DNA of 64,000 nucleotides. It comes from Anaeramoeba ignava BMAN. Lineage: Eukaryota > Protista > Anaeramoebae. Under the pieces are notes generated by a model, which made no database searches, was not told where the DNA came from, and saw only the letters and a program-made list of their open reading frames with translations. The position numbers were made by a program, and so were the translations under genes. Every line of letters starts with the position of its first letter. The first letter of the stretch is position 1. Of the stretch, positions 9,333 through 62,680 are shown piece by piece. The stretch lies in contig JAPDFW010000033.1 in the NCBI GenBank assembly GCA_028826165.1, positions 710,987 through 774,986 of the forward strand, in the 5' to 3' direction.

Positions 9333-9522
9333 TTTTGAAAAGAAAAAAAATGAAAAAAATGATTTTAATTTTAATTTTGAATTTTAATTTTGATTTTGAT
9401 TTTAATTTTGATTTTAATTTTAATTTGGATTTTAATTTTAATTTTGATTTGAATTTTAATTTTGATTTTAATTTTGATTTTAATATTTAATTTTGATTTT
9501 AATTTTAATTTTAATTTTAATT

Positions 9523-11274: not shown

Positions 11275-11450
11275 TTTCTTTATTTAATTTTTTATTTTTT
11301 AATTTTTGAAATGAAAAAAAATGAAAAAAAAAATTTTGGAATTTTGATTTTGATTTGAATTTTTAATTTTAATTTTAATTTTAATTTTAATTAATTTTAA
11401 TTTTAATTTTAATTTTAATTTTAATTTTGATTTGAATTTTAATTTTAATT

Positions 11451-19469: not shown

Positions 19470-19573
19470 TTTAAACTTAAAAATGAAAAAAAATGAAAAA
19501 AAATGAAAAAATTTTTTTTATTCAAAACAAAACAAAAAAAAATAATCAAAATGAATAAATTTTTTTCTTTTTT

Positions 19574-32342: not shown

Positions 32343-32506
32343 AAACCAAAAAACCAAAAAACCAAAAAACCAAAAAAACAAACCTTTATTTTAAAAATTA
32401 CAAACAGAACAAATTTTTTAATTCCATTTATTTTTTTTTCATTTTTTCATTTTTTCATTTTTTCATTTTTTCATTTCAAAAAAAATTAAAAAAGAAAAAA
32501 AAGAAA

Positions 32507-34264
32507 ATGAATGAAATTTTATTTTTTGGTTTCAATAATAACCCAATTCTTATTAAAAATAAACCAAATAAAATAACAAAACCAATTCAATTTAAATTTA
32601 AATTTGAAAATGAAAATGAAAATGAAAATGAAAAACAAATTAAACAAATTTCATCAGATTATTTTGGAATAATTTTCCTTTTTAAAAATGGAAAAGCAAT
32701 AAAATATCCAAATAATTCAAAACAAAAACCTCAAAAAATCCAAATTGAAAATATTCAAAAAGTAACTGTTAGATCGGGAAATGAAACTATTTTAACAATA
32801 GAAGGAAATGTATTTAGAAAAGATTATTCAAATCCAAAAAATCCAAATGAATTTATCAATATTTCATCATTAATTGAAGATACAAATGATAGAATAATTC
32901 AAGATGTTGTTTCTGGAGATAGTACAGTTTACTTATTAACTTCAAATCAAAATGTTTATGGAATTGGTTCAAATTATTATGGTCAACTTGGTTTAAAAAA
33001 ACCTAAAAACATAAAAAAACCAATTTTAATGATGAAAAATATTTCTAAAATATTTACAGGAAATTCTACTTATCATGTTTTTCTTTTAAATTCAAATCAA
33101 GAATTATTTTGTTGCGGTAAAAATAATCATGGACAACTTGGATTAGGTCATCACAAAAAAAAAATAATTTCATTAACCAAAATTCAAAATATTCCAAAAG
33201 GCAAAATAATTGATATTCAAACAGAAGATGATTATTCAATAATGTTGATTGAAGAAGAAGATGAAAATCCAAAAAGAAAACTTTATTCATGTGGAAATTA
33301 TCGATATAATGGACTTGGCAAAGATGAAAATACTTATGAATTTACTGAAATTAAATCATCTTTATTTGAAAATGATGATAATATTCTTGAAATTTCTTGT
33401 GCATATCATCATACTTTGATTTTAACATCCAAAGGAAAACTGATTTCATTTGGAAGAAACGATTATGGTGAATTAGGAACTGGAGATACAATAAATCAAT
33501 ATATTCCAATTCAAATTGAACTTCCTAAATTAAGATTTAATGAAGATATTTTCAATTATCATGTTCATTGTGGATATAACAAATCATTTCTTTATTATTC
33601 TCCTTCTCTTTCTTCTTTTTCCAATCTTGAAGAAGATTTGATAAAACTATTTGAAAGAAAAGAATTTTGTAATATTTCATTTAAAACAGAAAATGGAGAA
33701 ATAATTGAAGCTCATAAATTAATATTGAAATATAGATTAAATCAAAATCAAAATCAAATTGAAAAACTTCAAGAAATTATTTCAAATAAATCAATTAAAG
33801 AATCAAATCAAATATTTGAAATGATTTATTCAAACAGAATAATAAATCCAAAATTATATTCTGAAATTAAAGAAATTATAAATTCAAATGAAAAAATAGA
33901 AGAAACAATGAAAAGAATTTATTTAAATGAAAATGAAAATGAAAATGATTTTATAATTGAAAGAAAAGAAAAACAATATAAATTTCCAAAATTAATATTA
34001 ATAATGAGAAGTGAATTATATCGAGGAATGTTTTTATCTGTAACTGAAGATAAATCAAATAAAGTTACAGATTATAGTGAATTAAGTAATAAATCATTTC
34101 AAATATTTGAATATTGGATTTATTCAAATCAAATTAAAGAAGGAATTCAAATTACACAAGAAATGATTGATGAAATTAAAATTGGAATTGATTATTTTCA
34201 ATTAAATCAAACAAATCCAAATTTATTTGATTTATTAATTAACAAATTTAATAATCAAAATTAA
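32507..34264 (+). CDS. RCC1-repeat + tandem BTB protein (array B, copy 1)
   Basis: 585-aa intact paralogue of the array A genes. Confidence 0.9.
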   Translation: MNEILFFGFNNNPILIKNKPNKITKPIQFKFKFENENENENEKQIKQISSDYFGIIFLFKNGKAIKYPNNSKQKPQKIQIENIQKVTVRSGNETILTIEGNVFRKDYSNPKNPNEFINISSLIEDTNDRIIQDVVSGDSTVYLLTSNQNVYGIGSNYYGQLGLKKPKNIKKPILMMKNISKIFTGNSTYHVFLLNSNQELFCCGKNNHGQLGLGHHKKKIISLTKIQNIPKGKIIDIQTEDDYSIMLIEEEDENPKRKLYSCGNYRYNGLGKDENTYEFTEIKSSLFENDDNILEISCAYHHTLILTSKGKLISFGRNDYGELGTGDTINQYIPIQIELPKLRFNEDIFNYHVHCGYNKSFLYYSPSLSSFSNLEEDLIKLFERKEFCNISFKTENGEIIEAHKLILKYRLNQNQNQIEKLQEIISNKSIKESNQIFEMIYSNRIINPKLYSEIKEIINSNEKIEETMKRIYLNENENENDFIIERKEKQYKFPKLILIMRSELYRGMFLSVTEDKSNKVTDYSELSNKSFQIFEYWIYSNQIKEGIQITQEMIDEIKIGIDYFQLNQTNPNLFDLLINKFNNQN

Positions 34265-34569
34265 AATCAAAATTAAAATTAAAATTAAAATTAAAATAAA
34301 ATCAAAATTAAAATTAAAATTAAAATTAAAATTAAAATTAAAATTAAAATTAAAATTAAAATTAAATTTCAAAATCAAAATTAAAATTAAAATTAAAATT
34401 AAAATTAAAATTAAAATTAAATTTCAAATTAAAATTAAAATTAAAAATCAAAATTAAAATTAAAATCAAAATTAAAATTAAAATTAAAATTAAAATTAAA
34501 ATTAAAATTAAAATTAAAAATCAAAATTAAAATTATTTTTTCATTTTTTCATTTTTTTCTTTTTCAAAA

Positions 34570-36334
34570 ATGAATGATTGTTTATTTTTTGGTCACAATA
34601 AATATCCAATTCTTTTCAAAAATGAAAAAGATAAAATAATAAAACCAATTCAATTTAAATTTGAAAATGAAAATGAAAATGAAAATGAAAATGAAAAACA
34701 AATTAAACAAATTTCTTCAGATTATTCAACAATTTTCCTTTTTAAAAATGGAAAAGCAATAGAATATTTAAGAGATTCAAAACAAAATCCTGAAAAAATC
34801 CAAATTGAAGAAAATATTCAAAAAGTAACTGTTGGCGGTGAAAATGAAGCTATTTTAACAATAGAAGGAAATGTATTTGCAAAAGGAGAATATATCAATC
34901 AAGAAAATCCAAATGAATTTATCAATATTTCATCATTAATTGAAGATACAAATGATAGAATAATTCAAGATATTGTTTCTGGATTGTATTCAATTTACTT
35001 ATTAACTTCAAATCAAAATGTTTATGGAATTGGTTCAAATCATTATGGTCAACTTGGTTTTGATTCTAAAACAATTTATCAAACACAAAAACCAATTTTA
35101 ATGATGAAAAATGTTTCTAAAATATTTTCAGGAAGTTCTTCAATTTCTGTTTTTCTTTTGAATTCAAATCAAGAATTATTTGGATGCGGATATAATTTTT
35201 GGAGTCAGCTTGGATTAGGAGAATCGATACAAGAAACAGATGAAGAAGAAAAAATCGAAAAATTAACCAAAATCCAAAATATTCCAAAAGGCAAAATAAT
35301 TGATATTCAATCTGGGAATATCCATTCAATAATGTTGATTGAAGATGAAGATGAAAATCCAAAAAGAAAACTTTATTCATGTGGGCATTCGCTAAATAAT
35401 GGACTTGAAAAAAACAGAAATGAATTTACTGAAATTAAATCACCTTTATTTGAAAATGATGATTATATTCTTGATTTTTCTGTTGGAACTAATCATACTT
35501 TGATTTTAACTTCTAAAGAGAAATTAATAGGATTTGGAGATAATGAATATGGTCAATTAGGAACTGGAGATAGAAAAAATCAATATATTCCAATTCAAAT
35601 TGAACTTCCTAAATTAATATTTAATGAAAATATTTTCAATTATCATGTTTCTTGTGGACTTAGGAAATCATTTCTTTTATTATTCTCATCCTTCTTTTTC
35701 CAATCTTGAAGAAGATTTGATAAAATTATTCCAAAGAAAAGAATTTTGTGATATTTCATTTAAAACCAAAAATGGAGAAATAATTGAAGCTCATAAATTA
35801 ATATTGAAATATAGATTAAAAGATCAAAATCAAAATGAAATTGAAAAACTTCAAGAAATTATTTCAAAAAAATCAATTAAAGAATCAAATCAAATATTTG
35901 AAATGATTTATTCAAACAGAATAATAAATCCAATATTATATTCTGAAATTAAAGAAATTATAAATTCAAATGAAAAAATTGAAGAAACAATGAAAAGAAT
36001 TTATTTAAATGAAAATGAAAAAGATTTTATAATTGAAAGAAAAGAAAAGAAATATAAATTTCCAAAATTAATATTAATAATGAGAAGTGAATTATATCGA
36101 GGAATGTTTTTATCTGTTACAGAAGATAAATCTAATAAAGTTACAGATTATAGTGAATTAAGTAATAAATCATTTCAAATATTTGAATATTGGATTTATT
36201 CAAATCAAATTAAAGATGAAATTCAAATTGCACAACAAATAATTAATGAAATTAAAATTGGAATTGATTATTTTCAATTAAATGAAACAAATCCAAATTT
36301 ATTTGATTTATTAATTAATAAATTTAATAATTAA
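34570..36334 (+). CDS. RCC1-repeat + tandem BTB protein (array B, copy 2; frameshift near 35675)
   Basis: ORFs 34570-35709 and 35624-36334 join at a T-run (KSFL|YYSHPSFSNLEEDL). Confidence 0.85.
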
Positions 36335-36586
36335 AATCAAAATTAAAATTAAAATTAAAATTAAAATTAAAATTAAAATTTAAATTAAAATTAAAATTAA
36401 AATTAAAATTAAAAATCAAAATTAAAATTAAAATCAAAATTAAAATTAAAATTAAAATTAAAATTAAAATCAAAATCAAAATTAAAATCAAAATTTAAAT
36501 TCAAAATTAAAATTAAAATTAAAATCAAAATTAAAATTAAAATTAAAATTAAAAAATCATTTTTTCATTTTTTTTCTTTTCAAAAA

Positions 36587-38393
36587 ATGAATGAAATTAT
36601 ATTTTTTGGTCAAAATTATTATCCAAAACTTATCAAAAATGAACCAGATTCAATTACAAAACCAATTCAATTTAAATTTAAATTTGAAAATGAAAATGAA
36701 AATGAAAATGAAAATGAAAATGAAAATGAAAATGAAAATGAAAATGAAAATGAAAATGAAAATGAAAATGAAAATGAAAAACAAATTAAACAAATTTCAT
36801 CAGATTATTTTGGAATAATTTTCCTTTTTAAAAATGGAAAAGCAATAAAATATCCAAATAATCCAAATCAAAAACCTCAAAAAATCCAAATTGAAAATAT
36901 TCAAAAAGTAACTGTTGGTGGTGATAATGAAACTATTTTAACAATAGAAGGAAATGTATTTAGAAAATATATTAATCCAAAAAATCCAAATGAATTTATC
37001 AATATTTCATCATTAATTGAAGATCCAAATGATAGAATAATTGAAGATATTGTTTCTGGATACAGTTCAGTTTACTTATTAACTTCAAATCAAAATGTTT
37101 ATGGGATTAGTTCAAATTATTATGGTCAACTTGGTTTAAAAAAACCTAAAAACATAAAAAAACCAATTTTAATGATGAAAAATGTTTCTAAAATATTTAC
37201 AGGAAATTCTACTTATCATGTTTTTCTTTTAAATTCAAATCAAGAATTATTTTGTTGCGGTAAAAATAATCATGGTCAACTTGGATTAGGTCATCACAAA
37301 AAAAAAATAATTTCATTAACCAAAATTCAAAATATTCCAAAATGTAAAATAATTGATATTCAAACAGAAGATGATTATTCAATAATGTTGATTGAAGAAG
37401 AAAATGAAAATCCAAAAAGAAAACTTTATTCATGTGGAAATTATCGATATAATGGACTTGGTAAAAATAAGCATACTTATGAATTTACTGAAATTAAATC
37501 ATCTTTATTTGAAAATGATGATAATATTCTTGAAATTTCTGTTAGAAGTTCTCATACTTTGATTTTAACTTCCAAAGGAAAACTGATTTCATTTGGAAGT
37601 AATTTATTTGGTGAATTAGGAACTGGAGATACAATAAATCAATTATATTCCAATTCAAATTGAACTTCCTAAATTAAGATTTAATGAAGATATTTTCAAT
37701 TATCATGTTCATTGCGGATATCAAAAATCATTTCTTTATTATTCTCCTTCTTCTTTTTCCAATCTTGAAGAAGATTTGATAAAATTATTCCAAAGAAAAG
37801 AATTTTGTAATATTTCATTTAAAACCGAAAATGGAGAAATAATCAAAGCTCATAAATTAATATTGAAATATAGATTAAATCAAAATGAAAATCAAATTGA
37901 AAAACTTAAAGAAATTATTTCAAACAAATCAATTAAAGAATCAAATCAAGTATTTGAAATGATTTATTCAAACAGAATAATAAATCCAAAATTATATTCT
38001 GAAATTAAAGAAATTATAAATTCAAATGAAAAAATAGAAGAAACAATGAAAAGAATTTATTTAAATGAAAATGAAAATGAAAATGATTTTATAATTGAAA
38101 GAAAAGAAAAACAATATAAATTTCCAAAATTAATATTAATAATGAGAAGTGAATTATATCGAGGAATGTTTTTATCTGTAACTGAAGATACTTCCAATAA
38201 AGTTACAGATTATAGTGAATTAAGTAATAAATCATTTCAAATATTTGAATATTGGATTTATTCAAATCAAATTAAAAAAGGAATTCAAATTACACAAGAA
38301 ATAATTAATGAAATTAAAATTGGAATTGATTATTTTCAATTAAATCAAACAAATCCAAATTTATTTGATTTATTAATCAAAATTAAAATTTAA
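36587..38393 (+). CDS. RCC1-repeat + tandem BTB protein (array B, copy 3; frameshift near 37643; expanded EN tract)
   Basis: An extra T at INQ|YIPIQIELPK separates ORF 36587-37663 from the BTB part ending at 38393. Confidence 0.85.
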
Positions 38394-38420: not shown

Positions 38421-39948
38421 TTAATGATATTCGTTGAGAAAAATCCATTCCAAAAATAAAGAGGCAATAAAAATTGGAGAAGAAATAATTGTTGCAGATA
38501 AATTAATTATTTTTTCTATTTTCAGAAAAGAAAGTAAAGAAATCAATCCCAAAAAAAATCCAACAAGAGCAGAAACTCCAGAAATCATATAATCACTTCT
38601 ATCCAAATTGTTAAGTCTGAATAAAACGATTAAAATCAATGCTAAAATTGGGTAAAGAGAAAGAATGAAAAGAGGAATAAAAGTTGAAATCCAAGAAGAA
38701 TCTGAATTTTTCGAATCAAAGTGATTAAAAGCAGTTTTGATTGAAATAAAAACAAAAGGGAAAGAAATCATTACATAAGCAAGAAAATTGGTGACTAAAA
38801 CAATATCAGATTTCCCAAGATCTGAAGCTTCTTTTTGATTTTTTTGTTATAATAGTTTTTGAGGATCAAAATGAAAAAAGAAAAAAGAAAAAAAAAATTT
38901 TTTTTTTTGAGAAGAAAATTTTTCCAAATTATTTCCTTACTGAATCGTTGAATCAAAAAAATTATCCAGAAAATAATTAAAGATGAACCAGAAATTGCAA
39001 AAAATGTAAGAATAACTGAATTTGGAATGAATAAATTGTGATCCAATCTTAATGCAAGTAAAAGGAAAAAAATTGTCATAAAACCTGAACCTATTCCAAT
39101 TCCCATCAATAATAATTTTTCAGAATCACTATTTGGATATGAATAGAAATGGAGAATCCACCAAAAAAAAAAGATGAAAAATGAATAAAGCCAAGGAAAT
39201 AAAACCATTTTCCAATTAAGAAAACTATTCTGAAAATCAAATTTCAAAGCAATCAAAATAATTGGGAATATCAATAAAAAAGGGACAATCGACCATTTTA
39301 TCAATTTGGACATTTTGTATTCATTAAATTCATGGATTTTCCTTTTTCTTTCTTCTGTTTTTATCTTTTTTTCATATGATTTCCTTGCTTGAATAATTTT
39401 TTTCATTTGATCAACAACAAACGTTTTTCCGTTTTTATTGATCAAATTGACAAGTTTTGAGGAAATTTGATCTTCTTTTTGATTCTTGAAGTAATATTCG
39501 ATTCCTAAACTTCCTGTAAAAAAATACTCTTCTTGAAATGAATTGTATAAATTTGAACGATCATATTTTTTTGTCACTTTTTCAAAATCAAGAAAAAGAG
39601 GATATTTTCGAACAATATTTTTCCAAAGAAACCAATCATTATGAATTCTATTGAATTGTTTGCATGTTTCAGAACAAATTATTAAGTTATTTGGCTCTAA
39701 ATAAGAAAAAATATCCAAAACAACTTTTTGAAGAAAAAATAAAAATCAAAATCAAAATCAAATTTTTAAGAATTTTGCTTTTTTTCGTAAGATATTTTAC
39801 TTTCATCTGGTAAATCTTGAAAATTTATTTCTTCTTTTTGATTTTCTTTTTGAATTTCTTTTTGTTTTGGTGAATTTATTAAATTTGGAAAAGGTTTCGA
39901 AACGAAAAATAATTGTTTTATTAATTGATTTGTGATGAATTTTTCCAT
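38421..39948 (-). CDS. F-box protein with multi-pass transmembrane C-terminus (TMEM185-like), 3 exons
   Basis: Splicing out 39800-39724 gives the F-box FQDLPDEIVLDIFSYLEPNNLIICSETCKQFNRIHNDWFLWK. A second intron starts at 38940. Repeated TM units: LIALKFD...NWKMVLFPWL, LLALRLD, SWISTFIPLF. Confidence 0.75.
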
Positions 39949-40015: not shown

Positions 40016-42152
40016 TTATTGTTTGTCTTCCATGCAACTCCATTTTGGTTTTTTTTGTTTTTTTTGAATAAATTGATTTGGAATAAATCCAGTTGTTTTA
40101 TTATCAATATCAGCAACAAAACTTCTTCCATTAATTTGAACAATAACTTTGAAAATTTGACCTTTTTTGATAGTTAAAACTTCATTTGTAGGATCTTCAA
40201 AATTCTTTAAACTTTCAAATGTTAAGAAATCTTTGTTTTCATAAATAGGATCATAAGGGAAAAAATGTGTTAAAATTCCAGAAGTATTAACAACTTTTGA
40301 AACTCCCATTTGATAACAAGTAAAATGAGAAATTGGATGAGATAGAGTATAATCTGAATAAATCCAAATAGGAATATCTTTATTGATTTGTCTAATAGAT
40401 TGAGTAAGTGATAATCCTGCAGTTGTATATTCTTGTTTTTTCTTAGGATGTTCAGTTCTAACTTCAATTCTTTTCATATCACTAATAATTAAAAACCATT
40501 CTTCTTGATTTTTTTGAAATTCTAAAATTGCTTTTTCAGTATCAATAACTGTTGTGATTTTTAATCCTACTTTTCTTGCAGCTTCAATTATAGGTTTATT
40601 ATTTTTTGGTTCATCATCAACCCAAAGAATTTTCTTTTTTTTCTTTTTTGGTGCTTCTTTATTCAAATTAATTGCTTTTTCAGTTTCTTTTGGGTTTGTT
40701 TTGTTACTCCAATTTTGTTTTTCTGATCTTTCTTTTTTGATTTTTTCAAAAATATCATAAGGATTTTCTTCATCAAATTTAATTAATAATCCATAAGGAA
40801 CAATTTGATCTGGAAAAAGAATAATCCATTCAAGTGAATCATTTGGAACTTGAAGATCAATAGGAACATTATTTGGCCATCCTATTGTCTGTTCTTGAAT
40901 TACATTCACTTTTTCAATTCTTATTTGAAACATTACTCGAACAAAATATGATTTATTATTATAGTTAAAATGAACTGGTAAAGCATAAGCTGGATGAGAA
41001 GCATAAAGATAAGATTGAGAAGCATAAATATGTTTTTGATTTTGAATATGTCCTTTTGGAATTTCAACAATTTTTCCATCTTGTGTTTTATTTCCTGGAA
41101 TAACTAATCCATTTTTAACAATTGATTTTGTATTTTCATATTTTGTTCCATGATATCCATATGACCATTTACTTACATCTTTATTTCCTTGATTCTTCAT
41201 TTTCAATCTTATCCATCCAACAGGTGGATAATAACGTGTTTTATTGATTATAAATCCAATATCTTTTTCTGTATAAATATGAAAATCATCCATTTCAAAA
41301 TCTTTTTCAAGTTCAATTTCATTATAATCACATCCTTGTTTTAAAAATTCAATTGTCATATTTTTTAATTCATTTTCTTCAGATTTTTTTGAACATGAAA
41401 TTTGAACTGAAGTTTTAAAATCTTCATTTTTTTCAAAAACAAAACTTGTTCCATTTTGGAAATTAAAATGATCATTAGTTATTTCAACTATTTCATCTCC
41501 AGTAAATATATATTTTTGTTTTGATTGAGGAAGAAACCAATTTGTAATTATTTTAAGATTTTCACCTAAAATTCTTGCTTGAGCAATTATTCCTTGTTCA
41601 TTATCAAAATATTTTCCTTTCATTGAATCAGTTAAAATAATATTATTGTTTTCTGAATCGATATTTGCAAATTTGATCAAATTGTCTTTTTTTTCATCTT
41701 TCAAATCTTCGATTTCATTATAAAATGATTTAGCACGAAAATAATCATCAAATTTAATTCTAAATTTTTCATTTTCATCTTTCCATTCAACATAAGAAGG
41801 TTGATTTGAATATCTTTCTCCATTTAATTTATGAATAGTTCCACTTTTAATTAAAAAAATTAATGGATTTTTTCCCTTTTATTTTTAAATTAAAAAAAAA
41901 GGAAAAATAAATTTAATCAAAATTAAAATTAAAATTAAAATTAAAAATTCAAAATTTAATTACATTTTCTGATTTACATTCAATTTTCATTTCATTGTTT
42001 TGTATTAGAAGTTTAATTTGAGCATTTTCAAAACCTTTATATGTTTTCCAATTTGAATGAAGTGAATTATAAAATTGAACTTCTTGATAACCTAAATTTT
42101 TAATTCTAACTTGTGTATTTTGTGGAATTTGTTTTTTTTTTCGAGATTTCAT
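40016..42152 (-). CDS. PH/EVH1-like + NEURL4-type ADP-ribosyltransferase + receiver (REC) + SH3 protein, copy 1 (682 aa; intron 41963-41876)
   Basis: ART: YYPPVGW, WSYGYHGT, HIYASQSYLYASHPAYA, VMFQIRI, LEWII, IVPYGLLIK. REC: KILWVDDEPKNN...FLIISDMKR...AGLSL...IPIWIYS. SH3: FESLKNF...LTIKKGQIFKV...TGFIPNQFI. Confidence 0.85.
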
Positions 42153-42269
42153 TTCTCTTTTTAAAAATAAAATCAAATTAAAAATGAATAAAAAAATGAA
42201 AAATAAAAATAAATAAAAATGTGTCCACTTTTATTTCTTTTTTATTTCTTTTTTATTTCTTTTTATTTC

Positions 42270-42795
42270 TTTTTATTTTGATTTTGATTTTGATTTTGAT
42301 TTTGATTTTGATTTTGATTTTGATTTTGATTTTGATTTTGATTTTGATTTTGATTTTTGATTTTGATTTTGATTTTGATTTTGATTTTGATTTTGATTTT
42401 GATTTTGATTTTGATTTTGATTTTGATTTTGATTTTGATTTTGATTTTGATTTTGATTTTTTGATTTTGATTTTGATTTTGATTTTGATTTTGATTTTGA
42501 TTTTGATTTTGATTTTGATTTTTTATTTTTTGATTTTTGATTTTGATTTTAATTTTATTTTGATTTTGATTTTATATTTTGATTTTGATTTTGATTTTGA
42601 TTTTGATTTTAATTTTGATTTTGATTTTGATTTTGATTTTGATTTTGATTTTGATTTTGATTTTGATTTTGATTTTGATTTTGATTTTGATTTTGATTTT
42701 GATTTTGATTTTGATTTTGATTTTGATTTATTTTGATTTTGATTTTGATTTTGATTTTAATTTTAATTTTAATTTTGATTTTGATTTTGATTTTG
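42270..42795. repeat. (GATTTT)n hexamer microsatellite between ART-REC-SH3 copies 1 and 2
   Basis: Direct reading; it produces spurious (IL)n, (DF)n and (NQ)n ORFs. Confidence 0.9.
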
Positions 42796-42814
42796 CCTTT
42801 TAGAAAAAAAAGTT

Positions 42815-45018
42815 TCAAAATTTAAAAAAACTAAAAAAATTATTTGTTTGATTTTGATTTTGATTTTTGATTTTTTCTTCTTTCGGTTTTTGGGGTTTTG
42901 ATTTTTTAATCAAATTATTTGGAATAAATCCAGTTGTTTTATTATCAATATCAGCAACAAAACTTCTTCCTTTAAATAGAACAATAACTTTGAAAATTTG
43001 ACCTTTTTTGATATTTAAAAATACATTTGAAGAATCTTCAAAATCCTTTAAACCTTCAAATGTTAAGAAATCATTGTTTTCATAAATAGGATCATAAGGG
43101 AAAAAATGTGTTAAAATTCTAGAAATATTAACAACTTCTGAAACTCCCATTTGATAACAAATAGAATAAGAAATTGGATGAGTTCGAGTATATTGTGAAT
43201 AAATCCAAATAGGAATATCTTTATTGATTTGCCTAATAGATTGAGTAAGTGATAATCCTGCAGTTGGATATTCTTTTTTTTCCTTAGGATGTTCAGTTCT
43301 AACTTCAATTCTTTTCATATCACTAATAATTAAAAACCATTCTTCTGGATTTTTTTGATATTCTAAAATTGCTTTTTCAGTATCAATAACTGTTGTGATT
43401 TTTAATCCTACTTTTCTTGCAACTTCAATTATAGGTTTATTATTTTCTGGTTCATCATCAACCCAAAGAATTTTCTTTTTTTTCTCTTTTGATGCTTCTT
43501 TATTCAAATGAATTGCTTTTTCAATTTCTTTTGGAGTTGTTCTATGACTCCAATTTGGATTTTCTAATCTTTCTTTTTTGATTTTTTCAAAAATATCATA
43601 AGGATCTTCTTCATCAAATTTAATTAATAATCCATAAGGAACAATTTGATCTGAAGAGAAAATAATCCATTCAAGTAATTCATTTGGAACTTGAAGATCA
43701 ATAGGAGCATTATCTGGCCATCTTATTGTGTGTTCTTGAGTTACATCCACTTTATCAACTCTTATTTGAAACATTACTCGAACAAAATATGATTTATTAT
43801 TATAGTTAAAATGAACTGGTAAAGCATAAATTGGATGAGAAGCATAAATATAAGATTGAGAAGAATAAATATGGTTTTGATTTGGGATATGTCCTTTTCG
43901 AATTTCAACAATTTTTCCATCTTGTGTTTTATTTCCTGGAATAACTAATCCATTTTTAACAATTGATTTTATATTTTCATATTTTGTTCCATGATATCCA
44001 TATGACCATTTACTTACATCTTTATTTCCTTGATTCTTCATTTTCAATCTTATCCATCCAACAGGTGGATAATAACGTGTTTTATTGATTATAAATCCAG
44101 TATCTTTTTCTGTATAAATATGAAAAGAATCCATTTCAAAATCTTTTTCAAGTTCAATTCCATTATAATCACATCCTTGTTTTAAAAATTCAATTGTCAT
44201 ATTTTTTAATTCATTTTCTTCAGATTTTTTTGAACATGAATTTTGAACTGAAGTTTTAAAATCTTCATTTTTTTCAAAAGTAAAACTTGTTCCATCTTGG
44301 AAATTAAAATGATCATTAGCTACTTCAACTATTTCATCTCCAGTAAATATATATTTTTTTTGTTTTGATGGAGGAAGAAGCCAATTTGTAACTATTTTAA
44401 GTTTTTCACCTAAAATTCTTGCTTGAGCAATTATTCCTTGTTCATTATCAAAATATTTTCCTTTCATTGAATCAATTAAATTATTATTATTATTATTATT
44501 AATATTATTGTTTTCTGAATCGATATTTGCAAATTTGATCAAATTGTCTTCTTTTTCATCTTTCAAATCTTCGATTTCATTATCAAATGATTTAGCACGA
44601 ACATAATCATCAAATTTAATTCTAAATTTATCATTTCCATCTTTCCATTCAACATAAGAAGGTTTTTTTGAATATTTTTCTCCATTTAATTTATGAATAG
44701 TTCCACTTTTAATTGGAAAAATTAATGGATTTTTTCCCTTTTATTTTTAAATTAAAAAAAAAGGAAAATTAAATTTGATCAAAATCAAAATCAAAATTAA
44801 AATTAAAAATTAAAAAATTAAAATTTAATTACATTTTCTGATTTACATTCAATTTCCATTTCATTTTTTGTAAATTGAACGTTAATTTGAGCATTTTCAA
44901 AACCTTTATATGTTTCCCAATTTGAATGAAGTGAATCATAAAATTGAACTTCTTGATAACCAAAATTTTTAATTCTAACTTGTGTATTTTGTGGAATTTG
45001 TTTTTTTTGAGATTTCAT
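42815..45018 (-). CDS. PH/EVH1-like + ART + REC + SH3 protein, copy 2 (702 aa; intron 44832-44738)
   Basis: Same motifs and intron position as copy 1; intact ORF. Confidence 0.85.
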
Positions 45019-45099
45019 TTCTCTTTTTAAAAATAAAATCAAATTAAAAATGAATAATAAAATGAAAAAAAAAAAATTTTTTTCCACTTTTTTTAATTT

Positions 45100-45560
45100 T
45101 AATTTTTATTTTGATTTTGATTTTAATTTTAATTTTAATTTTAATTTTGATTTTGATTTTGATTTTGATTTTTATTTCTTTTATTTTGATTTTGATTTTG
45201 ATTTTGATTTTGATTTTGATTTTGATTTTGATTTTTGATTTTGATTTTAATTTTAATTTTAATTTTAATTTTGATTTTGATTTTGATTTTGATTTTAATT
45301 TTAATTTTAATTTTGATTTTGATTTTGATTTTGATTTTGATTTTGATTTTGATTTTGATTTTGATTTTGATTTTGATTTTGATTTTGATTTTGATTTTGA
45401 TTTTGATTTTGATTTTGATTTTGAATTTGATTTTGATTTTTATTTTGATTTTGATTTTGATTTTAATTTTTATTTTGATTTTGATTTTTATTTTGATTTT
45501 GATTTTGATTTTGATTTTGATTTTGATTTTGATTTTGATTTTGATTTTGATTTTTGATTT
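45100..45560. repeat. (GATTTT/AATTTT)n microsatellite between copies 2 and 3, overlapping the copy 3 C-terminus
   Basis: Direct reading of the sequence. Confidence 0.9.
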
Positions 45561-47673
45561 TTTCTTCTTTCGGTTTTTGGGGTTTTGATTTTTGAATAAA
45601 TTGATTTGGAATAAATCCAGTTGTTTTATTATCAATATCAGCAACAAAACAAGAATCTTTAAATAGAACAATAACTTTGAAAATTTGACCTTTTTTGATA
45701 TTTAAAAATACATTTGAAGAATCTTCAAAATCCTTTAAACCTTCAAATGTTAAGAAATCATTGTTTTCATAAATAGGATCATAAGGGAAAAAATGTATTA
45801 AAATTCTAGAAATATCAACAACTTCTGAAACTCCCATTTGATAACAAATAGAATGAGAAATTGGATGAGTTCGAGTATATTGTGAATAAATCCAAATAGG
45901 AATATCTTTATTGATTTTTCTGATTAATTGAGTAAGTGATAATCCTGCAGTTGGATATTCTTTTTTTTCCTTAGGATGTTCAGTTCTAACTTCAATTCTT
46001 TTCATATCACTAATAATTAAAAACCATTCTTCTTGATTTTTTTGAAATTCTGAAATTGCTTTTTCAGTATCAATAACTGTTGTGATTTTTAATCCTACTT
46101 TTCTTGCAACTTCAATTATAGGTTTATTATTTTCTGGTTCATCATCAACCCAAAGAATTTTCTTTTTTTTCTCTTTTGATGCTTCTTTATTCAAATTAAT
46201 TGCTTTTTCAGTTTCTTTTGGAGTTGTTCTATGAATCCAATTTTGTTTTTCTAATCTTTCTTTTTTGATTTTTTCAAAAATATCATAAGGATTTTCTTCA
46301 TCAAATTTAATTAATAATCCATAAGGAACAATTTGATCTGAAGAGAAAATAATCCATTCAAGTGATTCATTTGGAACTTGAAGATCAATAGGAACATTAT
46401 TTGGCCATCTTATTGTGTGTTCTTGAGTTACATTCACTTTATCAACTCTTATTTGAAACATTACTCGAACAAAATATAATTTATTATTATAGTTAAAATG
46501 AACTGGTAAAGCATAAATTGGATGAGAAGCATAAAGATAAGATTGAGAAGCATAAATATGTTTTTGATTTGGAATATGTCCTTTTGGAATTTCAACAATT
46601 TTTCCATCTTGTGTTTTATTTCCTGGAATAACTAATCCATTTTTAACAATTGATTTTGTATTTTCATATTTTGTTCCATGATATCCATATGACCATTTAC
46701 TTACATCTTTATTTCCTTGATTCTTCATTTTCAATCTTATCCATCCAACAGGTGGATAATAACGTGTTTTATTGATTCTAAATCCAATATCTTTTTCTGT
46801 ATAAATATGAAAAGAATACATTTCAAAATTTTCTTCAAGTTCAATTCCATTATAATCACATCCTTGTTTTAAAAATTCAATTGTCATATTTTTTAATTCA
46901 TTTTCTTCAGATTTTTTTGAACATGAATTTTGAACTGAAGTTTTAAAATCTTCATTTTTTTCAAAAACAAAACTTGTTCCATTTTGAAAAATAATATAAT
47001 CATTAGCTACTTCAACTATTTCATCTCCAGTAAATATATATTTTTTTTGTTTTGATGGAGGAAGAAGCCAATTTGTAATTATTTTAAGATTTTCACCTAA
47101 AATTCTTGCTTGAGCATTTATTCCTTGTTCATTATCAAAATATTTTCCTTTCATTGAATCAAGTAAAATAATATTTTTTAACTCAATTCTTCCAATTCCA
47201 ATTGTTTGTCTTTTTTTTTCATTTCCTAAATTTCCAATTTCATCATCAAATGATTTAGCATAAAAATAATCAAGAAATTTAATTCTAAATTTATCATTTC
47301 CATCTTTCCATTCAACATAAGAAGGTTTTTTTGAATATTTTTCTCCATTTAATTTATGAATAGTTCCACTTTTAATTAAAAAAATTAATGGATTTTTTCC
47401 CTTTTATTTTTAAATTAAAAAAAAGGAAAAATAAATTTAATCAAATTTAAAATCAAAATTAAAATTAAAAAATTAAAATTTAATTACATTTTCTGATTTA
47501 CATTCAATTTCCATTTCATTTTTTGTAAATTGAACGTTAATTTGAGCATTTTCAAAACCTGTATATGTTTCCCAATTTGAATGAAGTGAATCATAAAATT
47601 GAACTTCTTGATAACCAAAATTTTGTGTTCTTTTTTTTTGATAAAAAGAAGGTGCTCTTCTTCTTCGTGCCAT
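45463..47673 (-). CDS. PH/EVH1-like + ART + REC + SH3 protein, copy 3 (707 aa; intron 47487-47401)
   Basis: Same motifs and intron. Distinct N-terminus MARRRRAPSFYQKKRTQ. The C-terminus runs into (NQ)n. Confidence 0.85.
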
Positions 47674-47765: not shown

Positions 47766-50700
47766 TTAATTTTGATTTTGATTTTGATTTAGATTTTGAT
47801 TTTGATTTTTATTTCGGAAGATTTTATGCGAAATTCTGGGTTTAGGAACTGGAATTGAATTTGGATCAAAAAATTTCCAATACTTACCATTGTTATCATA
47901 AGGATTTTTAGGGACTTGTCTAGAATCAATATCTGAATCGATATATGGATCATTTAAATTTTCGTTTTCTTTTTCAATTTGATTTTGATTTTGATTATTA
48001 TTATTTTCCAAATAAAATTCAACTTCATAAGCAAATTCTATGAGATCTTCTAAATCAATTTTGATATTTTTTGGATCAACAAAATATAAATCTATTTTTG
48101 GGTGTTGAATTTTGATATCATTTGGATCTTTTCCTGTTTCAAGAAATTTTTGAAACTCATTCTGATTTTGATTTTGATTTTGATTTTGATTTTTTGATTT
48201 AAATTCTTTTTGAAAAATTATTTCCTTTTTTGGTAAATTTTTAATTTTTTCTTGAATTATTGAGAATATTTTTGATTCAATATCTGCTAATAATTTTGAA
48301 TTAATAGAATTAATAATTTTTTGTTTAATTTTTTCGGAATTAATATTTAAAATTGGAATTGATTGAATTTGTTCCATTTTAATTGGAAAAGAAATAATGA
48401 ATTGATTTTCAATTTGATTTTGATTTTTATTTTGATTTTGATTTTGATTTTTATTTTGATTTTGATTTTGATTTTGATTTTGATTTTGATTTTGATTTTG
48501 ATTTTGATTTTGATTTTCGATTTGAAATATTTGAAAAGCTTTTTTAAGTAATTGATTTTGTAAATGAATTGTATAATCAATCATATTTTCAATTAACATA
48601 AAAATTTGGAAATTTTGATCTAATTTTTTAGAAGTTAAAATTTTAATTCTTTTTAAGCAAATATCCCAAAATATTTTGAAATGATAATAATTTTTATGAG
48701 AGTTAATATTTTTTGAATAAATACATTCAATAAAGTTTTCAATTTCATTTTGATTTTCATTTTGATTTTGATTTTTTAAATTATCAAAAATTATACTTGA
48801 AATTTCAAGAAATTGTGGAAATAAATTCAAAAATTTCAATTCTTCTAAATTTTCAAAAAAGAAATCAAGTGCAAAAGTTTCTTTCTTTTCTTGATTTTTT
48901 TTGAAATTAATCAAATCAAAAATTTGAAACAATTCTTTTGATCCAAAATTTTGAAAAATCCATTTTTTTTCGATCTCTGGTTTTGTTATTTCTTGAATTA
49001 AATCAACTTGATAAATTGGATTTGTTTGAATTAAATTTAAGATATCTTGATGATTTTTTTTACGAATTTCTTCTATATTCTTGTGAAATGAATTTTTGTT
49101 ATATTTTTCTTGTTTTTGAGTCTCTTCTGAAAATTTAACCAAAATTTGATTATAATAAGCAAATGAATCTTTTAAAAGGAATGTTTAATAAATTTGCTAA
49201 TATTTCATTATCATTATTAATATGTTTTAAAAATATACTGTAAGTTTCATCTGATGAAAATTGATTTGAAACAAAATAATTTTTAAAATTAATAGAAGGA
49301 TGATAATAAGTATCAAAATTAATTAAACAAGATAAAAAGAATGAAGTGATCATCAATCGAATAATTCTAAAATCAATAGGATCAATTCCAGAAATAGTAA
49401 CAAATGGATTTCTTTTTGGATATTCATTTATTATTGGATAAATTGTATTTGAAAATAGTGAAACTATCAATTCTTTTTTTTCTTGTGATATTTTCAAATC
49501 ATCTTTAATTGATTCAAATCCATTCCAATAAGTTTTTATTAAATCTTCTAAATCTTTAATTTCTTTAATTTCTTCATTTTTTGTTAACATTTCAAAAATT
49601 CCATTTAAATGAATAAAAGGTTTTATTTTCTTTTGAAGTATAATCTTATGTGTTTCCAAAATAATTTGTTTAATTTGAGGTGAAATTATTTCCATATTTG
49701 ATATTTTTTTCGAAATGAATTGAACTTCTTCTTTTTCTTCATTATTAATAAGTAATTTAAAATGTGAATCTATGAAATTTTTTATAGACTTGGTTTGTTT
49801 AAATTGATTTTCTTTTATGAATTTTAAGAGATATCCAGAACCTTCCTTTTGATAAATTATTCCAAAAAGATAAATAAGAAAATCTTTTCCTTCATTTTGT
49901 AATGAAAATATTCTAATTTCTGGAAATTGTTGAATTAATAATGATGGATCTTCAAAAATTTGATTTCTTATATTGAATAATTGATTCATCTTTTCAAGAT
50001 TAAATGGTGGGTTTGTAAATTGAATTAATCTTGAATTATTAATAATTCTTTTTTCTTCTTCTTCTTTCTTTTCTTTTTCTTCTTTCTTTTCTTTTTCTAT
50101 TTGTTGAAGATTTTCTTCTGTGATCAAATTAATTTGGAATTTTGTTTTATATATCAATTTTTTTGCAATTATTTCTTCTAATTGTTTATCTTCCCAATCT
50201 GAATCAAAAATATATTCATTATTTTCCATTTCGATTTTGATTTCATTTTCATTTTCAATTTCATTTTGATTTTCATTTTCAATTTCATTTTCATTTTCAT
50301 TTTCATTTTCAATTTGATTTTCATTTTCAATTTCATTTTCATTTTGATTTTGATTTTGATTTTCAATTTCATTTTGATTTTGATTTTCAATTTCATTTTC
50401 ATTTTGATTTTGATTTTCATTTTCAATTTCATTTTCATTTTCCTTTTCATTTTCATTTTCATTTTGATTTTGATTTTGATTTTGATTTTCATTTTCATTT
50501 TCATTTTGATTTTGATTTTGATTTTGATTTTCATTTTCCTTTTCCTTTTCATTTTGATTTTGATTTTGATTTTGATTTTCATTTTGATTTTGATTTTGAT
50601 TTTCATTTTGATCTTGATTTTCTTTTTTAATTTTAAAATATTTAAAACCTGAATCGAAAATATATTCTTGATTTTCCATTTTCATTTCCATTTCCTTTTC

Positions 50701-53700
50701 ATTTTGATTTTCATTTTCAATTTCAAATGGTATGAATTCATCATCTTCTTCTTGATTTTCTTTTTTAATTTTAAAATATTTAAAACCTGAATCCAAAATA
50801 TATTCTTGATTTTGATTTTGATTTTGATTTTGATTTTGATTTTGATTTTGATTTTCATTTTGATTTTCATCTTCTTCTCCAAATTCATCTGATATGAATT
50901 CATCATCTACATTTTCATTTTCATTTTCATTTTCATTTTCATCTTCAATTTCAATTTCATATTTTACAAATTCATCATTTTCATTTTCCTTTTCCTTTTC
51001 ATTTTCAAATTCATCTGATATGAATTCATCATCTACATCTTGATTTTCCTTTTCAATTTCATTTTCCTCTTCAATTTCAATTTGATATTTTACAAATTCA
51101 TCATTTTCATTTTCCTTTTCCTCTTCAATTTCCATTTCCTTTTCATTTTTATCTCCAATTTCAAGTGGTATGAATTCATCATCTTCTTCTTGATTTTCTT
51201 TTTTAATTTTAAAATATTTAAAACTTGAATCGAAAATATATTCTTGATTTTGATTTTGATTTTGATTTTGATTTTGATTTTGATTTTCCATTTCCATTTC
51301 ATTTTCCATTTCCATTTCCATTTCCATTTCCTTTTGATTTTGATTTTTGAAATTTGGTATGAATTCATTTTCTTTTTTTTGATTTTCTTTTTTAATTTTA
51401 AAATATTTAAAACCTGAATCCAAAATATATTCTTGATTTTGATTTTGATTTTCCTTTTGATTTTGATTTTCATTTTCAATTTGATTTATGATATAAATTT
51501 CTTCTTCTTGAATATCAATAGTATTGGATAAAAATCTAATTTTTTTATAAATATCTTCATTCAATTCAAGACTTTTATCATGTTTAATTTGTTTCATCTC
51601 TTCTTTTTTAATTCCAAATTTTTTTTGTAAATTCTCATCTTTTAAAACAATTGTAAAAATAATAGATGAAAATCTATTATATTCATTTTCACTAATTGTA
51701 TTATTATCCGTTTTCTTAAATAAATCTTCAATAATTTTTATTATTCCTTCATTGAATTGATCTCCAAAATTTTGATTGAATAATTTTGTAAAAAAATATT
51801 CAAAAATAGAATTATATATGAAAATATTCTTTCTGGAAATTTCATATAAATACTTAATATCTGAATTTTTAATGATTAAATTAATAAATCTAGAAACTAA
51901 TTTCAAAACATTTCCTTTTTCATTTTGATTTTGATTTTGATTTTGATTTTGATTTTGATTTTGATTTTGATTTTCTTTTTGATTTTCATTTTGATTTTCA
52001 ATAATTAATCGATTTATTATAACTTTTTCAAAAGTATTTTATAAATTTGGTAATTTCATTCAATTTTGTTCTCATGAATTTAGTTCGTTTTGATATTTCT
52101 TTATCTATTTTTATTAAATTGAAATGTTTTTTGATATCACATTTTTTCCCACAAATCGAACATTTCTTTTCATTTTTCGTTTTCTCATAATCAATTTTTG
52201 AAATTATTCTATCTTTTATCAATTTATTTTGATTTTTTGTAGAACAAATGTAAATATCTTGTTTTAAATCTATTATTTTTTTCATTTCATTCATATCACC
52301 AAAATTTTTGGAAATCCATTCCTTTATTTTCAAAGTTTGTGATTTGAATTCTTTCAAAACCTTTTCTATTTCTTCAAATTGTTTATCATTAATGATATTT
52401 GTGTTGATAAGAGAATCATTGATTATATTCATTTTTTCAATAGAAGAAATTGCTTTTTGTAAAGATGAAGATGAAGATGAAAAAAGATCATCTTGATTTT
52501 TCAATAAAATATTCTTCTTATTTGTTTGATATCTTGTTTTAATCATAATCTCTTTTTGATCTTTTTCTTCTAATTTTATCATTTCAATTATTTCATTAAA
52601 TTTTGTATTAAAGAAATTAAGAAAAGTTTTGAAAGTAGAAATTTCGTTTTGAGTTTTTTTCTCTTTCAATTTTAAAAACATTCTCAAACAACAATCAATA
52701 AAATAATAAATTGAAAAGTTATTCTGATATACTTCTAAAAAATATTTTCTTATTGGTTTCATTTCTGTCCAAATCTCTAAAATAAGCTTTAATTTTGAAT
52801 GAAAAGATGGAAAATCAACTTTATATATTTCCACTAAAATGCTTTGATATGTTCTATTTTCTTGAGAAACTTTTTTGAGAAAATCAAAAATATCAATTTT
52901 TAATGCTTTAATCATTTCTTGTTCTTCATTTTTCAAAGTAATTGATTGTAAATCTTTTATATATAAAATAATAATCTCAGAATTATAAATATCTTTTTTG
53001 TTAGAAATTGTTTCTTCAATATATTCAAGTAATGATTTATTTTCTTCTAATTCAAATTGATCTTCTTTAATTATTGTGTAAATATTATCAAAAAATGGTA
53101 ATTTTGTATTTTCATATGTAACTTTTGTTTTTTGTATCATAGATAAGCTCATTTTTGAAATTAATCTCTTCCAAAAATCAAAAATTTGTTTGTTTGAAGA
53201 TAAATTTCTAGATGGTAAATCTTGAACTGTATTGTTTAAAAATCGAGAAAATATTTCAATAATCTTTAATTTGAATTGTAAATAAAGAAAAGAATTTAAA
53301 TTTTGGAATTTATTTTCTGATTTTGGTTCATTCTTTATCATTTCAATTAAATTCCATTGATAAAATTCCTCATTTTTGTTTTTAATTCCACTTTTTATCA
53401 TTTGAATGAAAAAGTTTATAATAATTTCCTTAAATTTATCAATATCTAAAATTGATTTGATATTTTTTAAAGCAATCTCGAAATGATCATCTTTAATTTT
53501 TAAAATTTTAGAAAGGGAATGTTTCAAATTATCTTGAATAATTGAATAAGTTTTATCTTTGTTGTTGTGAATAACACTTTCTAATGATTCATTCATATTT
53601 GATTCTTGATATAAATCCAAAATAATTTTTGGAGAAAGTTGATCCAAATGATAATATTCCCAAAATTGTTCAAAACAATAAGATATTTTTGGTGAATTTG

Positions 53701-56700
53701 TATCTTTTGAAGTATAGATAATAAATATAACATAAAATTTCTGTTCTTCAACTTCATTAATCTTTTCATTATTACTTTCTTTAAGAAAATCAAATATCAT
53801 TTCTTCAATTATAAATTTGGATTGATGGAAAATACTTGTATTAACTTGATTTGAATCAACATATATCAATAAAACTTGATTTTCATCATTCAATTTTACA
53901 TTTTCTTGTTGTTTTTGATTAAAGAATTCTTTTTCTAATTTATTTCTCAATGCTTGTTCTATATCAGTAGAAAGAATTTCAATTGAATTAATAATGTAAT
54001 TTTGAGGAATTGTTTTAATTTTTTCATCACTTGAAGAATATGTAAAAATTATTGAGTTATGAATATGATTTTTCAGAATTTCATTTTCAAATAAAGAAAT
54101 AAAATTTTGATGTGATTGTAAAATTGATGTTGAACAATCTTTCAAATACAAAGATTTTTTATTTGTTAAGTTTTTTGATATTAAATAATTATTTAATTCA
54201 ATAAGTTTGCCAATTTGTAAAAGCCTAATCCAATATTTAAGTTGTGTAATAAAAATAATATTGTAATCTTTATCATTTTTTTTGTTGTTTTCATTATTAT
54301 TTTCAATAATTTGTGGTTGATTTTTGTTTAAATCTTGAAATTTAATTGCTAATGTTAGAAATAAATCATCGTTATAATTTATTATTAAATTGTTATTATC
54401 AATATTTTCCTTTGTTATTGATTTAATTCCATCTAGAATTGTAGAGTGAGAGTCAATAAATTTGGTAATAAATTCATTTTGATTAAAATTAATTAAATCA
54501 AAATTTTCAAATTTGATAAATTTAGAACAACTTGATTGATCAACATTTTCAATTATTGAAACATCTTGTATTGAATATAATTTAAAATTTGAATGAATTT
54601 GAATAAATTTTGAATATAATCCAAATGTTACTTGTGCAAATTTATTATCACCAATTTGAATATAATTTTCTGTTAAAAGATTACATAAACCTTCCAAAAA
54701 TTCATTTCCATTGCATAAAATAACAGATCTTCCTAATGAAGCATAAAGTTCTATTTTTTTTAAAATTTTCCAATTCAAATATTCTTTCATTTCATCAGGA
54801 AATTGAGAAGAAAATAATATATTCATTCTTGTTGGAAATTGTTTCAAAAATATAGGAAGAAATGATAAATTTTTAAGTAAATAAATTGTTGAAATTTTTG
54901 GAATATCTAATTCATTATTATCATTATTATCATTATCTTCTTCTTTTTTTGTATCAGGAATTAAAATATCACTAATTTCATTTTCTTTTAATTGAGATTC
55001 TTGATTATCTGAAATATTTAATTCAATACCATTAAAAGTAGAAATGAATTTAAGTTGAGAATCTGAAATTATAAGAATAGGTATTTTCTCTTTTCTTTTT
55101 TCTTCATTGCTCAATATCTCAAAATCACTTTCATAAATTTGATTTAAATTTAAATAGAAATTCAAAATTTTATATGCTTCATTTGAATTATTTTCCAAAA
55201 ATTGAGTATTAGAAAGAGTAACAACAGGAAGAATATTGTTCTGATTCTCTTGAATACTTTTGAAATTTGATTTAAATAAATTTTGAATATCTTTTTTTGT
55301 TGTTTTAGTTGAACAAATAATATTAAAAAATTTGAGTGATGGAAGTTCTAATTTTTGAAAAATTTGATTTCCTGATTTTGAATCAATTTCTTTTAAAATT
55401 TTAATAGCAATATATTGAGATAAACCTATTTTTTATTTATATTATTTTATTTTATTTTTTTAAATAAATAAAAAGAGAATAAATTTAAAAAAAAATATTA
55501 TTTACCTGATTTTCCATAAAGAAAAAGTGTAGAATGTGAAAAATAACAAATGAAAATTATTAATAAATTTTGTTTTAATTCTTCAGTAATTTGAATTTGA
55601 GGGAAATAATGATCAAGTTCTAAAAAATTAATTAATTTGTTTTGAATATCAGAAATTATAGATTTAATTGTAGTTTTCTTATTTGAATTTAAATTGGGAT
55701 TGATTTCTTTTTCAATGTCAGATTCTAATTTATTTCTTTCTGTTTGAGATAATTTTAAAATATAATTGATAAACAATGAAACAACCATTCCATAAAAAAT
55801 TCTCACACTTTCTTCTTTTTCGCAAAATAAAATTTGTGAAATTTTTGAGTTTAATAACCAATTAAATATTGTTAAAGTTCTTGATATATCTTTTAAAGAA
55901 CAAGTTTGATTTAGGTTTTTTTGGATAAATTTATGAGAATTGATAATATTTTTTGTGAAAATTGTTTTAATTAATGTAATTTTATTATTGTTTGTTTTTG
56001 GAAATTTTAAATTTGTAAATGCTTGAGAAACCATTGAATAAATGAAATTATTTTCTATTTTTTCATTAAAAGTACCAAAATCTTCAAATTCATTTATAAA
56101 AGAATCTAAATATGGAAATTCTTGTTTTTCATTAAAATTAGAATAAGAAACAATAAAACGAATTTTATCAGATATTAAACTTCTATTTGAAATTCGATCA
56201 AAAATAATTTGTTTTAATAAAGCAATGCAATTTATTGGAATTGAATTTAATCCTTCAAATAAAATATTGAACGAGGTTTGTATGTTGTTTTTGTATATAA
56301 AATGTTCTGCTTCTGTAATAGTTTGAATAATTTCTTTTGTGTTTGATTTATCATTTAAATGATAAATTATCAAATGTTGATTCAAAAAATTTTCAATTAA
56401 AAATTGAATAAATTCAGAATTTAAATTTTCATTTGTAGTTTTGATAATTATTGGAATATTTGTTAATAATTTATATAATATTAAAATCATTCTCAAAAAG
56501 TTATCTAATGTAAAAAATTTCTTGAAATATTCATTTTCGAAAATAATAAACTTTTTATGAATTTCTATTAAATTTGGAGATAAATAACTTAATATTTCTA
56601 AAGCTTTAAAATTATCCATTTCAATTTTTCGTAAATTTTTTAAATGTTCATTAAATTTAAATCCATATTTTGAAACATTATTTTGAATTTCTCTATGAAA

Positions 56701-61719: not shown

Positions 61720-62680
61720 TTTAAATTTAAAAAAAAAAAACTTTTTTTATATCTTTCTTTTTAATTTTAAATTTAAAAAAAAAAATAAAAAAATGAAAAA
61801 AAAAAAGGAAAAAAATAAAAATAAAAATAAAAAGAAAAAGTGGAATTTTAATTAAATTTTTAAATTAATTTAATTATTTACATATTTTTATACTTAACTT
61901 TTATATTTAAATTTAAAACAAAACAAAACAATTTTATTTTTTTTAATTTATTTTTTTTATTTAAAAAAAAAAAAAGTGGAATGAAAATGAAAAACAATTT
62001 TCTTTCTATTTTCTTTTCCAAATTTTAATTTAATTTTGATTTTGATTTTTTAATTTTAATTTTTCATTTTGATTTTTAATTTTTGATTTTAATTTTAATT
62101 TTGATTTTTGATTTTGATTTTTTTTGATTTAAATTTTAATTTTGATTTTGATTTTTGATTTGATTTTTAATTTTGATTTTTGATTTTTTTAATTTTAATT
62201 TTAATTTTAATTTTGATTTTGATTTTAATTTTAATTTGATTTTGATTTTAATTTTAATTTTGATTTTGACATTTTTAATTTTAATTTAAATTTTGATTTT
62301 GATTTTAATTTTGATTTTGTTTTAATTTTGATTTTGAGTTTTTAATTTTTTTAATTTTGATTTTTGATTTTAATTTTGATTTTGATTTTAATTTTGATTT
62401 TGATTTTAATTTTAATTTTGATTTTAATTTTAATTTTAATTTCAATTTGATTTTGATTTTTGATTTTGATTTTGATTTTGATTTTGATTTTGATTTTTTT
62501 GATTTTAATTTTAATTTTTGATTTTGATTTTAATTTTGATTTTTTTGATTTTTAATTTTAATTTTGATTTTAATTTTGATTTTGATTTTGATTTTGATTT
62601 TTAATTTTGATTTTGATTTTGATTTTTGATTTTTGATTTTAAAAATTTTGATTTTAATTTTTTGATTTTTTAATTTCATT

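Follow-up and report, generated by a model that had tools for sequence, protein, structure and literature searches.

What does a protein do that joins an ADP-ribosyltransferase (ART) to a bacterial-style receiver domain (REC) and an SH3 domain? Three tandem genes of the protist Anaeramoeba ignava BMAN raise this question. They lie in a strongly AT-rich stretch of 64,000 nucleotides (hereafter the window; contig JAPDFW010000033.1 of assembly GCA_028826165.1, forward-strand positions 710,987 to 774,986), whose encoded proteins match A. ignava records. We found three intact genes of an apparently undescribed architecture, assembled from known parts. Their products are likely to be fast-changing sensor-enzymes rather than the endpoint of a classic two-component pathway, and we tentatively favour, with rather less than even confidence, a ligand-gated, kinase-independent ADP-ribosyltransferase serving host-microbe conflict. 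The three genes and the repeats between them are as follows.

40016..42152, minus strand: gene A (M0811_04488), 682 amino acids; exon 1 42152-41964, intron 41963-41876, exon 2 41875-40016
42270..42795, unstranded: (TTTTGA)n array separating gene A from gene B, 87 copies
42815..45018, minus strand: gene B (M0811_04489), 702 amino acids; intron 44832-44738; 5' part A-like, 3' part C-like
45091..45561, unstranded: (TTTTGA)n array separating gene B from gene C, 79 copies
45463..47673, minus strand: gene C, 707 amino acids; intron 47487-47401

As the initial annotation had proposed, these are co-oriented, intact paralogues with one conserved intron. Their open frames (40016-41878, 42815-44740 and 45463-47403) lie on the same minus strand and are 84-85% identical across exon 2; each copy has a first exon of 62-63 codons, followed at the identical position by a phase-0 GT-AG intron of 88, 95 and 87 nt in A, B and C, respectively. 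The spliced products contain no internal stop, and all of the motifs listed in that annotation were found in each. At its 3' end gene C runs on into the TTTTGA array, which gives its product an NQ tail. Database entries exist for the products of A and B; the nine matches listed do not include C. RNA evidence for the three genes was uninformative, a single run giving short matching contigs with no splice joint. A fourth paralogue, 68% identical and labelled neuralized-like by NCBI, lies on another A. ignava contig and has a complete open reading frame (ORF) record in EukProt, a format that we take to be transcript-derived.

The predicted ADP-ribosyltransferase and its flanking domains

The domains are given for gene A, in order from the N terminus.

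41705..42089, minus strand: residues 22-120, possible EVH1/WH1-type PH-fold domain, a lead that straddles the intron
41375..41647, minus strand: residues 140-230, strand-rich region, of low confidence in the full-length model
40769..41332, minus strand: residues 245-432, predicted NEURL4-type ART with H305, Y347 and E412
40637..40768, minus strand: residues 433-476, two-helix ART-REC linker (model residues 197-214 and 220-232 helical)
40256..40636, minus strand: residues 477-603, pseudo-receiver with D483-D484, D529, R532 and S570, no beta5 Lys
40064..40231, minus strand: residues 612-667, SH3 fold, degenerate ligand surface with K620 and S648

The Pfam scan did not name the ART domain. A model of the ART-REC region built on an 89-sequence alignment reached a pLDDT of 92.7 and a pTM of 0.77, and a Foldseek search placed the ART of PARP4 at rank 1 (E 5.3e-6), with PARP16, PARP14 and PARP10 lower. 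In the model the triad sits on core strands, H305 on the one at 63-69, Y347 at 108-111 and E412 at 174-177. The corresponding residues are conserved across the family (His in 141, Tyr/Phe in 139 and Glu in 141 of 143 ART domains), and the triad is kept in all three copies. These results support the NEURL4-type ART with an H-Y-E triad that had been read from the motifs, and the domain is a predicted PARP-like, NEURL4-type ART. Such ARTs have been classed as PARP-like (PMC10450202), and an ancestry among bacterial effectors has been suggested for them (PMC3417536). In human NEURL4, mutation of HGS and ELEW abolished ADP-ribosylation in vitro (PMC8932523). Because the triad is conserved and these NEURL4 mutants are inactive, it is reasonable to expect ART activity, and by analogy the predicted domain is likely to transfer ADP-ribose from NAD+.

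A profile search with the ART-REC region returned 1,997 representatives at E <=0.001. Neuralized domains (PF07177) occur in 5 of 26 scanned ART relatives (P0052, P0065, P0068, P0082 and P0135, at E 1e-21 to 6e-16, human NEURL4 itself being outside the comparison), and the others carry LRR, SPRY, ubiquitin, WWE, SH3 or GT4-conflict domains. The Anaeramoeba proteins gave no match to the PF07177 repeats and on this mark do not qualify as NEURL4 orthologues.

The annotated SH3 domain stood as a fold (E 0.02 against Src SH3) and in gene A passed the SH3_2 (PF07653) cut-off of 21.8 bits, with 23.1; the domains of B (15.5) and C (19.4) fell below it. In the alignment K620 and S648 lie opposite the Src ALYDY Tyr and the first Trp of WW. 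The Tyr and Trp at those positions of Src SH3 are ligand-binding. With Lys and Ser at two aromatic ligand-binding positions, PxxP binding is doubtful; as judged by alignment the SH3 appears to be decaying, its ligand surface degenerate, and the decay is stronger in the fourth paralogue. The EVH1/WH1 lead at the N terminus came from language-model features, with a score of 0.81 that is below the 0.9 lead line and 10 of the 10 best named matches in the same family or clan; Pfam and PDB profile searches of this region found neither EVH1 nor PH. A full-length model (pLDDT 43, under 40 in the N-terminal region) was usable for the receiver only, and an Atlas search with residues 138-240 gave no usable match. 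The suggested targeting through proline-rich ligands was therefore not sustained, given the substituted SH3 surface and an EVH1 domain that is a mere lead. No membrane segment is apparent in the three gene products.

A receiver that lacks the conserved lysine

The receiver assignment was borne out by the predicted structure: the domain is five-stranded and matched PorX at Z 15.2-15.9, with an rmsd of 1.8 Å over 112-113 residues. The Pfam receiver model PF00072 scored 15.8 bits, below its cut-off of 30.2. The canonical DD, phospho-Asp and Thr/Ser are present as D483-D484, D529 and S570. The beta5 Lys has been lost: the KP of RcsC aligns opposite sp of the profile, and the four paralogues have T, I, I and V. 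R532 lies three residues past D529 and is followed by an insertion, and this invariant Arg may stand in place of the Lys. Lacking the conserved Lys, the domain is a pseudo-receiver by the definition of PMC12632262. It is probably of bacterial origin.

Its relatives form a prokaryotic subfamily marked by WVDDxPxNN...DMxR, with 1,610 protein matches and an estimated ~1,100 genome stretches. The phospho-Asp is present in 120/121 protein relatives and the Arg at D+3 in 121/121, figures that are partly circular since a profile chose the set. In 80 loci from titled genomes, picked by the pattern WVDDxPxN, 79 kept the Asp, 79 the Arg, and one had Lys at the usual place. A search from a single seed, with limited reach, placed a histidine kinase no more than 6 kb away at 2 of 80 loci, and 120 adjacent ORFs included one histidine kinase and one LytTR regulator (54 had no Pfam match, some perhaps being wrong frames). 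Seven of 30 scanned host proteins, the longer ones out of 79, carried fusions, namely to TIR (twice), SIR2, DUF4062, caspase with LRR, protein kinase, and WD40 with GUN4; HisKA or DNA-binding outputs were absent from these 30. One protein (P0010) combines two receivers of the subfamily with TIR, TPR and EAD11. The receiver has no curated NCBIfam family.

Bacterial TIR-REC, SIR2-REC and caspase-LRR-REC fusions with the same lysine-less receiver were seen at L036:5422-6375, L056:4810-6372, L077:4258-6351 and L037:3475-6375; L036 adjoins an HNH gene, and L056 is flanked by TPR-S and patatin genes. We regard these fusions as candidate undescribed defence genes. Kinase-independent receivers have been proposed in conflict systems (PMC8195603, PMC7159879).

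The initial annotation had read the receiver as a switch in a His-Asp relay, set by phosphorylation of its Asp. In a true phosphorelay output, D529 would receive its phosphoryl group from an HPt protein or hybrid histidine kinase of the host, with Arg replacing Lys, and the ART would be switched. The intact DD, D529 and S570 would suit this scheme, as would the top structural matches PorX and CheY, which are phosphorylatable, and the seven hybrid kinases of the fellow metamonad Trichomonas vaginalis (PMC6324907). However, the Lys is absent and, in the adjacent ORFs and the limited single-seed search, kinases are rarely near the bacterial relatives, so the relay claim is not supported in its original form, and we consider such an output quite unlikely.

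Decidedly less probable is a cRec-like enzyme that hydrolyses a cyclic phosphate or ADP-ribose product of the adjoining ART, in which case the two domains would act as a make-and-erase toggle. Domains of the cRec type keep the aspartates, occur without kinases and sit alongside NAD+ enzymes (PMC7824862, PMC9503650). The fusion of the receiver subfamily to TIR, SIR2 and ART also favours this idea. However, the caspase, protein kinase and membrane-anchor-only forms do not fit it. Pfam includes a cRec model, and that model was not among the Pfam matches of these proteins or their relatives.

ART followed by REC also occurs in four unnamed environmental proteins (P0004, P0011, P0012 and P0013) and two fragments. 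SH3 matches are missing from all four proteins, and P0017 has an SH3 ahead of a related ART with no receiver. The annotated uniqueness is thus lost for the ART-REC core, which other organisms share, and kept for the SH3-bearing form, which was seen only in A. ignava among the top 150 profile matches and within the length limits of the database search. The ART-REC group clusters by its ART (support 0.94; SH-aLRT 84 in a quick tree of 45/143 rows that has one long unrelated branch inside the group) and by its REC (0.93). Since ART and REC each cluster together, a single fusion event would fit. Proteins with the reverse order, REC-ART (P0005-P0008, P0034 and P0063), have degenerate receivers, with Ser in place of the second Asp of the DD pair and no phospho-Asp motif; because their ARTs form a separate branch (SH-aLRT 99), theirs is likely an independent fusion.

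Three metagenome contigs related to P0012 were found, all short. The ART-REC relatives L082:554-1675 and L083:1-924 have no catalytic His and retain WVDD, and L082 also retains the Asp and Arg; by their residues both are likely pseudo-enzyme paralogues. Searches of viral contigs and plasmids found no relatives, and neither did one alignment-based search of metagenome contigs. Literature searches combining NEURL4, ADP-ribosyltransferase and receiver, or PARP-like, receiver, SH3 and protist ART, found no description of the full architecture, as the initial annotation had supposed, and earlier comparative-genomics surveys may show it. The LWVDD motif gave irrelevant matches only. The words ADP-ribosyl, response regulator and neuralized do not occur in the main text of the A. 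ignava genome paper, and none of the 11 supplements covered, out of 15, names the gene.

Divergence of the three copies

At the DNA level the copies share 90-93% identity, and gene B has private changes; an assembly artefact was rejected on these grounds, and the recent triplication proposed earlier is supported. Gene B is a mosaic of its neighbours. At its 5' end it is A-like (C is the odd one at 91/126 informative sites) and at its 3' end C-like (A is the odd one at 70/86), with the switch point near the ART start; the sites are clustered, so that the permutation p is overstated. The pattern is as would be expected from an unequal crossover between A and C.

Strong positive selection was considered and rejected, since the naive dN/dS of 1.7-3.8 was inflated by codon bias (GC3 6.5-8%). 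Codon models gave an omega of 0.69-1.8 (0.69-1.5 in one analysis and 0.77-1.8 in the comparison with controls), not different from 1 (2dlnL 1.8 and 0.6). The controls were three sets of RCC1-BTB paralogues from the window, which overlap one another; their omega of 0.13-0.57 rejected 1, and their N/S was 0.11-0.48. At A/T-only sites 0/188 synonymous versus 22/865 replacement sites varied (p 0.02; no power per domain); relative to synonymous changes, replacements were more frequent here than in the control paralogues. Changes hit 5/98 conserved positions compared with 56/261 other positions (p 1e-4), and around the catalytic Glu 13 of the 36 residues at 383-418 were variable (window-corrected p 0.011). 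The region around the catalytic Glu sets ART substrate choice. Together the residue patterns suggest diversification upon a conserved core.

A more ordinary history deserves serious thought, even if on balance we find it somewhat unlikely: the ART would be active in everyday signalling within the cell, the pseudo-receiver would serve constitutively as a scaffold or to bind partners, and the copies would be diverging under relaxed constraint after recent duplication. An omega not different from 1 is in keeping with this, and so are the decaying SH3, more so in the fourth paralogue, the many tandem families nearby, and the housekeeping mitochondrial role of human NEURL4 (PMC8932523). However, the pocket of DD, D and Arg is kept across bacteria and the clade, although a simple scaffold could do without it, and the A/T-only changes are all replacements. 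Drift of three redundant or silent copies into pseudogenes would also give an omega near 1, but frames and splice sites are all intact at 7-10% DNA divergence, conserved positions are spared by changes, and the fourth paralogue has its EukProt complete-ORF record; we consider this drift very improbable. The neighbouring features of the window include the following.

7554-12788 (minus strand) and 32327-38393 (plus strand): two RCC1-BTB paralogue clusters, 65-95% identical, under purifying selection
15534-19517, minus strand: ankyrin-repeat frame of 1,327 amino acids, where GC content rises to as much as 36% (elsewhere ~20%)
25859-28696, minus strand: three abutting frames with single stops between, UCH peptidase and a weak zf-BED match; possibly a decayed mobile element or broken gene
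38795-39745, minus strand: F-box protein whose C-terminal half is hydrophobic, immediately downstream of gene A
47766-61746, minus strand: long low-complexity frames of 472-1,245 amino acids without a Pfam match, immediately upstream of gene C

The proposed enzyme and known systems

In the ligand-gated, kinase-independent reading that we favour, the products would be soluble proteins whose predicted PARP-like domain transfers ADP-ribose from NAD+. The fused lysine-less receiver would gate the ART, with no histidine kinase, when it binds either a partner or a small signal molecule that carries phosphate. Where the proteins go, or what they associate with, would be decided by the SH3 and the N-terminal domain, likely not by canonical PxxP binding. 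The probable setting would be dealings with bacteria or viruses; catalysis, receiver gating and a conflict role are the parts that we infer.

Several observations weigh against this reading. The structural match of the ART is distant (TM 0.26-0.36, the 0.36 being to the PARP4 target, rmsd 6.9), and the ART received no Z score, the lists being filled by receivers. The catalytic His is absent in 2/3 of the metagenome relatives. Pseudo-receivers that retain the Asp may still become phosphorylated (PMC12632262). On the bacterial side, 23 of the 30 scanned hosts have no Pfam family besides the receiver, a membrane-like segment is the sole element before the receiver in 84/117 short members, and PADLOC models match neither the receiver nor these proteins. 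Tandem families are common in the window, so that triplication by itself is little evidence. Relaxed constraint also fits the divergence, since omega is not different from 1, the tests were post hoc, and recombination confounds them.

A bolder extension, which we think unlikely, is that WVDD/DMxR lysine-less receivers are an undescribed kinase-independent sensor class arming NAD+-consuming effectors (TIR, SIR2, ART), one of which was captured by a eukaryotic lineage, fused to a NEURL4-type ART and diversified in Anaeramoeba as a self-contained immune or symbiont-control enzyme. If true, bacterial-style immunity logic would have been rebuilt in a protist. The receiver-ART fusion would offer a one-protein readout for what switches kinase-less pseudo-receivers. 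As A. ignava has bacterial symbionts, the fusion would also be an effector candidate there, and it points to an unstudied bacterial receiver subfamily.

Compared with known systems, the Anaeramoeba proteins resemble NEURL4-type ARTs in their HG[ST] and LEW motifs and in having Neuralized-carrying ART relatives among their matches. In contrast to these, they have no Neuralized repeat, their ART lies mid-protein ahead of the receiver and SH3 and branches separately from the ARTs of Neuralized-bearing proteins, and their triad is H-Y-E, whereas that of human NEURL4 is listed as H-L-E (PMC7955679). With bacterial receivers and pseudo-receivers (PF00072; PMC12632262) they share the five-stranded fold and the DD, D and S, but they differ from bacterial receivers in lacking the Lys and in having Arg at D+3 with an insertion after it. 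The reverse-order REC-ART proteins likewise pair a receiver-like domain with a NEURL4-type ART, but in the opposite order, with a degenerate receiver and a separate ART branch. In the accessible passages of the published accounts of conflict-system kinase-independent receivers and cRec (PMC8195603, PMC7159879, PMC7824862) no eukaryotic ART fusion was seen, yet by description these systems are alike in their kept aspartates, the lack of a linked kinase and the fusions to TIR and SIR2.

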